Source of the DNA: Escherichia coli | GTDB lineage: Bacteria > Pseudomonadota > Gammaproteobacteria > Enterobacterales > Enterobacteriaceae | Assembly: GCF_024502345.1 (NCBI RefSeq) | Contig: NZ_JALDNN010000001.1 | Strand: one strand, 5' to 3' | Length of the DNA: 64,000 bases | In this document: positions 38,736-39,031 of the stretch, one piece after another | Numbering within the stretch: the first letter of the stretch is position 1 | How the letters are laid out: each line of letters opens with the position of its first letter | Notes under the pieces: model-generated | The model's database searches: none | Seen by the model: the letters and a program-made list of their open reading frames with translations, nothing else | Told to the model about the DNA's origin: nothing | Program-made: the position numbers and the translations under genes

Positions 38736-38812
38736 TGGTTGCGGGGGCCGGATTTGAACCGACGACCTTCGGGTTATGAGCCCGACGAGCTACCAGGCTG
38801 CTCCACCCCGCG
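38736..38812 (-). tRNA. metV: tRNA-fMet (initiator), copy 3 of 3
   Basis: Reverse complement CGCGGGGTGGAGCAGCCTGGTAGCTCGTCGGGCTCATAACCCGAAGGTCGTCGGTTCAAATCCGGCCCCCGCAACCA (77 nt, CAT anticodon, 3' CCA). Confidence 0.95.
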
Positions 38813-38844
38813 TCACCGTACTGCTTTATTTCATTAAATTTGAT

Positions 38845-38921
38845 TGGTTGCGGGGGCCGGATTTGAACCGACGACCTTCGGGTTATGAGCCCGACGAGCT
38901 ACCAGGCTGCTCCACCCCGCG
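38845..38921 (-). tRNA. metW: tRNA-fMet (initiator), copy 2 of 3
   Basis: Identical 77-nt sequence. Confidence 0.95.
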
Positions 38922-38954
38922 TCACCGTACTGCTTTACTTCATCAAATTTTAAT

Positions 38955-39031
38955 TGGTTGCGGGGGCCGGATTTGAACCGACGACCTTCGGGTTATGAGC
39001 CCGACGAGCTACCAGGCTGCTCCACCCCGCG
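38955..39031 (-). tRNA. metZ: tRNA-fMet (initiator), copy 1 of 3
   Basis: Identical 77-nt sequence. Confidence 0.95.

Follow-up and report, generated by a model that had tools for sequence, protein, structure and literature searches.

The metZ-metW-metV operon of Escherichia coli: three identical initiator tRNA genes in tandem

The DNA analysed here, hereafter the window, is a stretch of 64,000 nucleotides from an Escherichia coli genome. ARAGORN detected exactly three tRNA genes in the window, all of them coding for tRNA-Met (anticodon CAT) and located on the minus strand (Table 1). Each copy matched the Rfam tRNA family RF00005 over the full model (positions 1 to 71) with a score of 61.4 bits (E = 3.4e-12; gathering score of 29), and no Rfam family other than tRNA matched the array. 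The three 77-mers are identical to one another and each of them ends with an encoded CCA. Tandem Repeats Finder reported a single array at positions 38732-39033 (period of 109, 2.8 copies, 97% matches, score of 576). A 22-nt probe corresponding to the tRNA 3' end, used with up to 3 mismatches, hit only the three array sites in the window versus 0 sites expected from shuffled sequences. Thus, the array is not due to chance. The array lies on the strand opposite to both mltA and amiC, the latter gene being convergent and separated from metV by 73 bp, as in E. coli K-12. ArgA, RecD, and TcdA, identified by matches to NCBIfam equivalogs, are also encoded in the flanking regions.

The initial annotation had placed three identical initiator tRNA genes at positions 38736-39031, each folding as a tRNA with a CAT anticodon and an encoded CCA, and amiC on the opposite strand. 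Its coordinates proved exact by ARAGORN, Rfam, and alignment, the fold and the anticodon were recovered by ARAGORN and by the full-length Rfam match, and amiC does converge on the array. The two spacers, described as near-identical and both of 32 nt, are indeed near-identical, with 3 substitutions and 1 indel between them, but only the metW-metV spacer is of 32 nt, the metZ-metW spacer being of 33 nt. This gives periods of 110 and 109 bp, and the proposed periodicity of 110 bp holds for one of them only.

Table 1. Features of the mltA-amiC region in the window.
Feature	Coordinates	Strand	Description
amiC	37409 (real start)-38662 (stop)	+	NCBIfam equivalog AmiC, 793.7 bits
Intrinsic terminator	38700-38729	-	Hairpin GAACACCCUAACGGGUGUUU with a trailing U run; 8 pairs, loop of 4, T-rich tail
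metV	38736-38812	-	Distal initiator tRNA-fMet1 gene, same sequence as metZ; ARAGORN, Rfam, and K-12
metW-metV spacer	38813-38844	-	32 nt, AUCAAAUUUAAUGAAAUAAAGCAGUACGGUGA; 2 substitutions and a 1-nt deletion relative to K-12
metW	38845-38921	-	Middle initiator tRNA-fMet1 gene, same sequence as metZ; ARAGORN, Rfam, and K-12
metZ-metW spacer	38922-38954	-	33 nt, AU-rich, AUUAAAAUUUGAUGAAGUAAAGCAGUACGGUGA; same as K-12
metZ	38955-39031	-	Promoter-proximal gene, 77 nt, anticodon CAU, encoded CCA; ARAGORN and Rfam; same as K-12 metZ
metZWV promoter and short leader	39032-39082	-	Identity to K-12, published primers, -10 mutations
Leader	to the tRNA 5' end (C1 at 39031)	-	...AUCCACGGA; sequence reading
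GC-rich discriminator	39044-39041	-	GCGC, followed by the leader
-10 box	39050-39045	-	TATAGT; read by eye and by identity to K-12
-35 box	39072-39067	-	TTGCAT, followed by a 16-nt spacer
A8 tract	39082-39075	-	Upstream of the -35 box
mltA	39240-40337	+	NCBIfam equivalog MltA, 678.9 bits

Positions 3923-64000 of the window are collinear with positions 2922417-2982494 of E. coli K-12 MG1655 (reverse complement), with 98.8% identity. In the RefSeq annotation of K-12, the counterparts of the three genes are metZ, metW, and metV, described as 'tRNA-initiator Met(CAU)' and located between mltA and amiC. Since the operon lies on the minus strand, the highest coordinates in the window belong to metZ and the lowest to metV. 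Six positions of the 577-bp mltA-amiC intergenic region differ from K-12. Two substitutions are located upstream of the promoter and one past the terminator. The remaining differences, two substitutions and the deletion of one nucleotide, are in the metW-metV spacer, which is of 33 nt in K-12 versus 32 nt here. None of these differences touches a recognised signal, and the tRNAs, the promoter, the leader, the metZ-metW spacer, and the terminator hairpin show no difference from K-12. The K-12 operon (b2814-b2816, coding for tRNAfMet1) and the array of the window have in common the same tRNA, including G46, three tandem copies, the same signals, the same neighbours, and the same orientations. 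The identification of the cluster as metZ-metW-metV in the initial annotation was upheld by this comparison, the tRNA being that of the K-12 genes and the mltA-array-amiC-argA-recD context being the same. The feature is the metZWV operon of E. coli, which is already known and fully described, and this copy is ordinary except for a second spacer shorter by one nucleotide. A fourth initiator tRNA gene of E. coli, metY (tRNAfMet2), has the same function and differs in sequence, in K-12, only at position 46 (PMC3017606). It is a single gene located upstream of rimP-nusA-infB, outside the window, and adjoins rimP-nusA-infB at another locus that was inspected (L040).

Two plus-strand open reading frames overlapping the array (38776-38976 and 38995-39183) were rejected as mechanical calls that read through the tRNA genes. 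A non-coding repeat array of the CRISPR or REP/BIME type was also rejected, the unit being a complete 77-nt tRNA and the spacers being near-identical, not unique.

Outside the operon, the left end of the window (positions 1-3923) is not collinear with K-12. This region contains an IS30 transposase open reading frame (125-1276), a yqeH/yqeG fragment (1621-2865) with 97.8% identity to K-12, and a full IS903B-like element of the IS5 family (approximately 2866-3922; transposase open reading frame at 2898-3866). This end lacks the K-12 genes kduD, kduI, and yqeF, and the greater part of yqeG. No complete E. coli genome covered at least 80% of this 4.2-kb arrangement. The 238-bp gap between mltA and tcdA contains REP/BIME-like palindromic units (40420-40501), which match the Rfam entry ES036/CssrF with 46.5 bits, above the gathering score, the match to naRNA4 being below threshold. 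The same gap is of only ca. 75 bp in some other E. coli genomes. The tandem small RNAs OmrA (10229-10316) and OmrB (10032-10113), as well as GcvB (43517-43722) and CsrB (61903-62262), are located at the positions expected from K-12.

The number of initiator tRNA genes was determined in E. coli genomes. BLAST coverage is unfit for this purpose because offset pieces are joined, arrays of one or two copies still being covered at 87-100%. Copy counts were obtained instead from the annotated features of each row, from the number of places matched by a 77-nt query, and from a junction-specific query. Among 5,426 complete E. coli genomes, the 77-nt tRNA query matched 21,174 places in 5,425; the median was 4 places per genome and the range 1 to 8. 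A total of four copies (three plus metY) was found in 55 of 60 evenly spaced genomes (~92%) sampled among the complete E. coli genomes. Three copies were present in three of these genomes, two copies in one, and six copies in one. An apparent zero-copy genome, strain ST648 (NZ_CP008697.1, recorded as 'complete'), shows only one N at the site of the whole array (L039, position ~2995), between the metZ leader and the flank of an island, and was discarded as an assembly gap. Thus, some of the deviations in copy number are assembly errors. The window could be affected in the same manner, since assemblers can collapse short tandem repeats, as illustrated by this N, and the true array could then comprise more or fewer than three units. 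This is very unlikely in view of the three-copy state observed in 56 of the 60 sampled genomes and of the two spacers, which are distinct in sequence and in length and anchor three separate units.

Other alleles are found at the same locus. Inspection of mltA-side loci revealed arrays of one (L004), two (L003), and five (L002) copies. The normal order of genes and spacers is Z-A-W-B-V. The spacers of the five-copy array (L002, positions 2501-3019) read A-B-A-B, the two-copy array retains only a spacer of the B type, and the one-copy array has normal flanks. The A-B-A-B order would be expected if metV on one sister chromosome had recombined unequally with metZ on the other. The diagnostic mark of this expansion, a B-tRNA-A junction, was found with 100% identity in at least 25 complete genomes submitted by many laboratories. 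The five-copy allele is therefore no artefact but a heritable feature of a lineage. The proposal of the initial annotation that the array can expand or contract by recombination agrees with the existence of arrays of 1, 2, 3, and 5 copies, whose spacers fit unequal crossing-over.

Additional departures from the common arrangement were recorded. In NRZ95651, seven copies are split by IS1B and by a truncated island gene. The BL21(DE3) assemblies (NZ_CP081489.1 and related) contain six places matching the initiator query, the mltA-amiC array contributing the usual three copies; beyond the array and metY, two further copies are thus implied. The middle tRNA of a re-assembly of CFT073 (NZ_CP051263.1; L005, positions 20111-20187) harbors a D-loop substitution of C by A (GCAGCCTGG to GCAGCATGG) and the promoter spacer of the same record reads GCGAGCAGAG versus GCGAGCGGAG, these differences being candidate variants or sequencing errors. 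A small number of true large plasmids also carry the identical tRNA, among them NZ_MG591698.1 (354 kb, E. coli) and NZ_CP109732.1 (91 kb, Enterobacter). Most of the other 100% matches in the 'plasmid' collection are records of 4-5 Mb, which are mislabelled chromosomes.

The copy-number polymorphism is real and inherited. The array may act as a reversible switch of initiator tRNA dosage, in which unequal recombination would generate alleles of one to five copies and selection would fix these alleles in lineages. The candidates for such a role are the at least 25 genomes that harbor a five-copy A-B-A-B array beside a metV island, and we regard the proposal as doubtful. Earlier publications on the number of initiator tRNA genes have already considered this idea; Samhita et al. 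reportedly addressed in 2014 the number of such genes that E. coli requires.

The 3' flank of metV is a second source of variation in the region. In 1,964 of the 5,425 genomes (~36%), homology to the window stops 0-8 nt past the 3' end of metV (positions 38727-38735) because an island is inserted at this site. An island encoding a type VI secretion system (T6SS) starts at the metV 3' flank in CFT073, genes for sugar metabolism start after metV in the five-copy lineage, and other islands begin with genes encoding phosphoglycerate dehydrogenase, KpsF/GutQ, and MalY. A different terminator hairpin follows metV in CFT073 and in the five-copy lineage. The site is empty and K-12-like in the window: the chromosomal junction of the metV island of extra-intestinal pathogenic E. 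coli is the same metV 3' flank, but the T6SS island of CFT073 is absent and amiC is found 73 bp past metV. As an alternative, the promoter-proximal copy might be the sole productive one, with the other two as redundant passengers or duplicated attachment-site relics of island integration at metV, since integration at tRNA genes often leaves duplicate tRNA ends and about 36% of the genomes have an island immediately 3' of metV. We consider this explanation extremely improbable. All three copies are full-length and identical, and the 22-nt probe revealed no partial tRNA 3' end that would mark a past island excision anywhere in the window. Two to four full copies are kept across the Enterobacterales, including in island-free strains, and the level of initiator tRNA has been shown to track gene copy number (PMC3017606).

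The identity of the tRNA was established from positions in standard numbering (77 nt with 17a). Elongator tRNA-Met and tRNA-Ile2 have a paired 1:72 position, a pyrimidine at position 11 facing a purine at position 24, and no run of three G:C pairs at positions 29-31:39-41. The tRNA encoded in the window contains the C1xA72 mismatch; the Rfam alignment flags no other pair as non-canonical. G2:C71, C3:G70, and A11:U24, which are auxiliary determinants of formylation, are all present, as are the anticodon-stem pairs G29:C41, G30:C40, and G31:C39. Positions 34-36 are CAT, flanked by C32, U33, A37, and A38, and the 3' end is A73-C-C-A. These features coincide with the determinants of bacterial initiator tRNAs and of formylation, namely C1xA72, the three anticodon-stem G:C pairs, and G2:C71/C3:G70/A11:U24 (PMC7949028). 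Position 46 is G. In K-12, the two fMet species differ at this position, A46 being present in the metY product (tRNAfMet2) and G46 in tRNAfMet1 encoded by metZWV (PMC3017606). Thus, the tRNA of the window is of the fMet1 species and is not the equivalent of the K-12 metY product. Every hallmark of the initiator tRNAfMet1 that can be read in a sequence is present. That the units encode another CAU tRNA, either an elongator tRNA-Met of the metT/metU type or tRNA-Ile2 (ileX/ileY, C34 being converted to lysidine), is virtually impossible: the ARAGORN label 'tRNA-Met, anticodon cat' does not separate the three CAU classes, but the unpaired C1xA72, A11:U24, and the three anticodon-stem G:C pairs are marks of the initiator (PMC7949028), which exclude both elongator tRNA-Met and tRNA-Ile2, and the sequence is the same as that of the K-12 genes annotated as initiator tRNA. 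Identity to the studied tRNAfMet1 of K-12 suggests that this initiator tRNAfMet1 would be methionylated, formylated by Fmt, and bound directly at the P site of the ribosome.

A generic scan for sigma-70 promoters between positions 38400 and 39400 returned no site. The metZWV promoter was missed because its -35 box (TTGCAT) fits the consensus at only three of six positions. The promoter was placed by eye, by its match to the identical K-12 sequence, and with the help of primers and -10 mutations described in a published study (PMC3017606). The knockout and flanking metZWV primers of that study are exact substrings of the window sequence. The promoter-down mutations D4 and D27, which map to the -10 box and to the preceding base, drastically lower tRNAfMet1 (PMC3017606). 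By analogy with rrnB P1, which has a spacing like that of TATAGT-GCGCAUCC-A, transcription may start near A39036. Downstream of metV, the hairpin at positions 38729-38700 is the only terminator-like site called by the terminator scan. This hairpin is present in the minimum-free-energy fold of the precursor. The fold of the 341-nt precursor (z = -1.7), in which the identical copies mispair in silico, is uninformative on processing. A second hairpin, with a GCGC core and flanking A and T runs, is located at approximately 38664-38689, directly after the amiC stop codon, and probably terminates amiC. The sequences of the promoter and of the terminator are the same as in K-12 and are kept across genera, in keeping with a predicted single transcription unit.

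A junction pattern combining the tRNA 3' end, 10-40 nt, and the tRNA 5' end detected 31 loci in a collection of species-representative genomes. According to ARAGORN, these include two tandem copies in E. albertii, in the arizonae and diarizonae subspecies of S. enterica, in Dickeya, and in Yersinia nurmii; three copies in Citrobacter, Klebsiella, Edwardsiella, Xenorhabdus, Atlantibacter, and Serratia; four copies in Tatumella saanichensis; and five to six copies in Ferrimonas and Marinobacter. Homologues of MltA, and often of AmiC, flank the array at most of the Enterobacterales loci. The motif A-tract/TTGCA(T/A)/N16/TATAGT/GCGC, the sequence ...CGGA immediately 5' of each tRNA, and the terminator motif ACACCC...GGGUGUUUUUUU are shared by loci ranging from Escherichia to Dickeya, Tatumella, and Serratia, the terminator motif being kept in many Enterobacterales. 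Read at the level of sequence, these recurring motifs are the phylogenetic footprint of one predicted promoter, one predicted terminator, and a putative conserved RNase P context. The other gammaproteobacterial arrays resemble that of the window in their head-to-tail organisation, in the same or nearly the same tRNA, and in their short spacers, and those of the Enterobacterales also in their mltA/amiC context and in their promoter and terminator motifs. They differ in copy number, and the spacers diverge outside the Escherichia/Citrobacter/Klebsiella group. In Marinobacter nauticus and at two loci of Ferrimonas balearica, the five to six units are of the initiator-type tRNA-Met(CAU), short spacers alternate with spacers of ca. 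110 nt, and the copies are not all identical.

Nothing in the sequence counts against the array being a metZ-metW-metV operon. We consider it nearly certain that this operon, with its three initiator tRNA-fMet1 genes under one promoter, functions according to the following account of expression, dosage, and recombination. The sigma-70 promoter that precedes metZ (TTGCAT-16-TATAGT, GC-rich discriminator) would drive synthesis of a tricistronic precursor, which would end at the hairpin and U run located just past metV and before the convergent amiC. By analogy with the general maturation of tRNAs in E. coli, RNase P would cleave the precursor at each tRNA 5' end, an endonuclease would cut the AU-rich spacers, which would be removed, and exonucleases would trim the 3' ends to the encoded CCA. 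The mature tRNA would be charged by MetRS. C1xA72 together with G2:C71, C3:G70, and A11:U24 would direct formylation by Fmt, and the three anticodon-stem G:C pairs would direct the tRNA to the ribosomal P site with IF2/IF3. For the strain analysed here, transcription, processing, aminoacylation, and formylation are proposed on the basis of identity to K-12 and of experiments published for K-12. The three tandem copies and the unlinked metY gene would set the cellular dose of initiator tRNA, and the head-to-tail identity of the units would enable unequal homologous recombination to add units to the array or to remove them from it.

Published experiments illustrate the importance of this dose. 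Deletion of metZWV abolishes tRNAfMet1, slows growth, and confers cold sensitivity, and the level of initiator tRNA follows gene copy number (PMC3017606; PMC11480407). When initiator tRNA is scarce, non-initiator tRNAs start translation (PMC3017606; PMC11480407; PMC7949028). For annotation purposes, the site 3' of metV is empty in this strain and the number of copies varies in E. coli both by recombination and by assembly error. What looks like a periodic 110-bp 'array' is a tRNA operon of the textbook kind. The metZWV operon is the source of most of the cellular initiator tRNA, which starts every protein, and published work shows that growth, cold tolerance, and the fidelity with which the tRNA is selected at start sites all depend on the dose of the operon.
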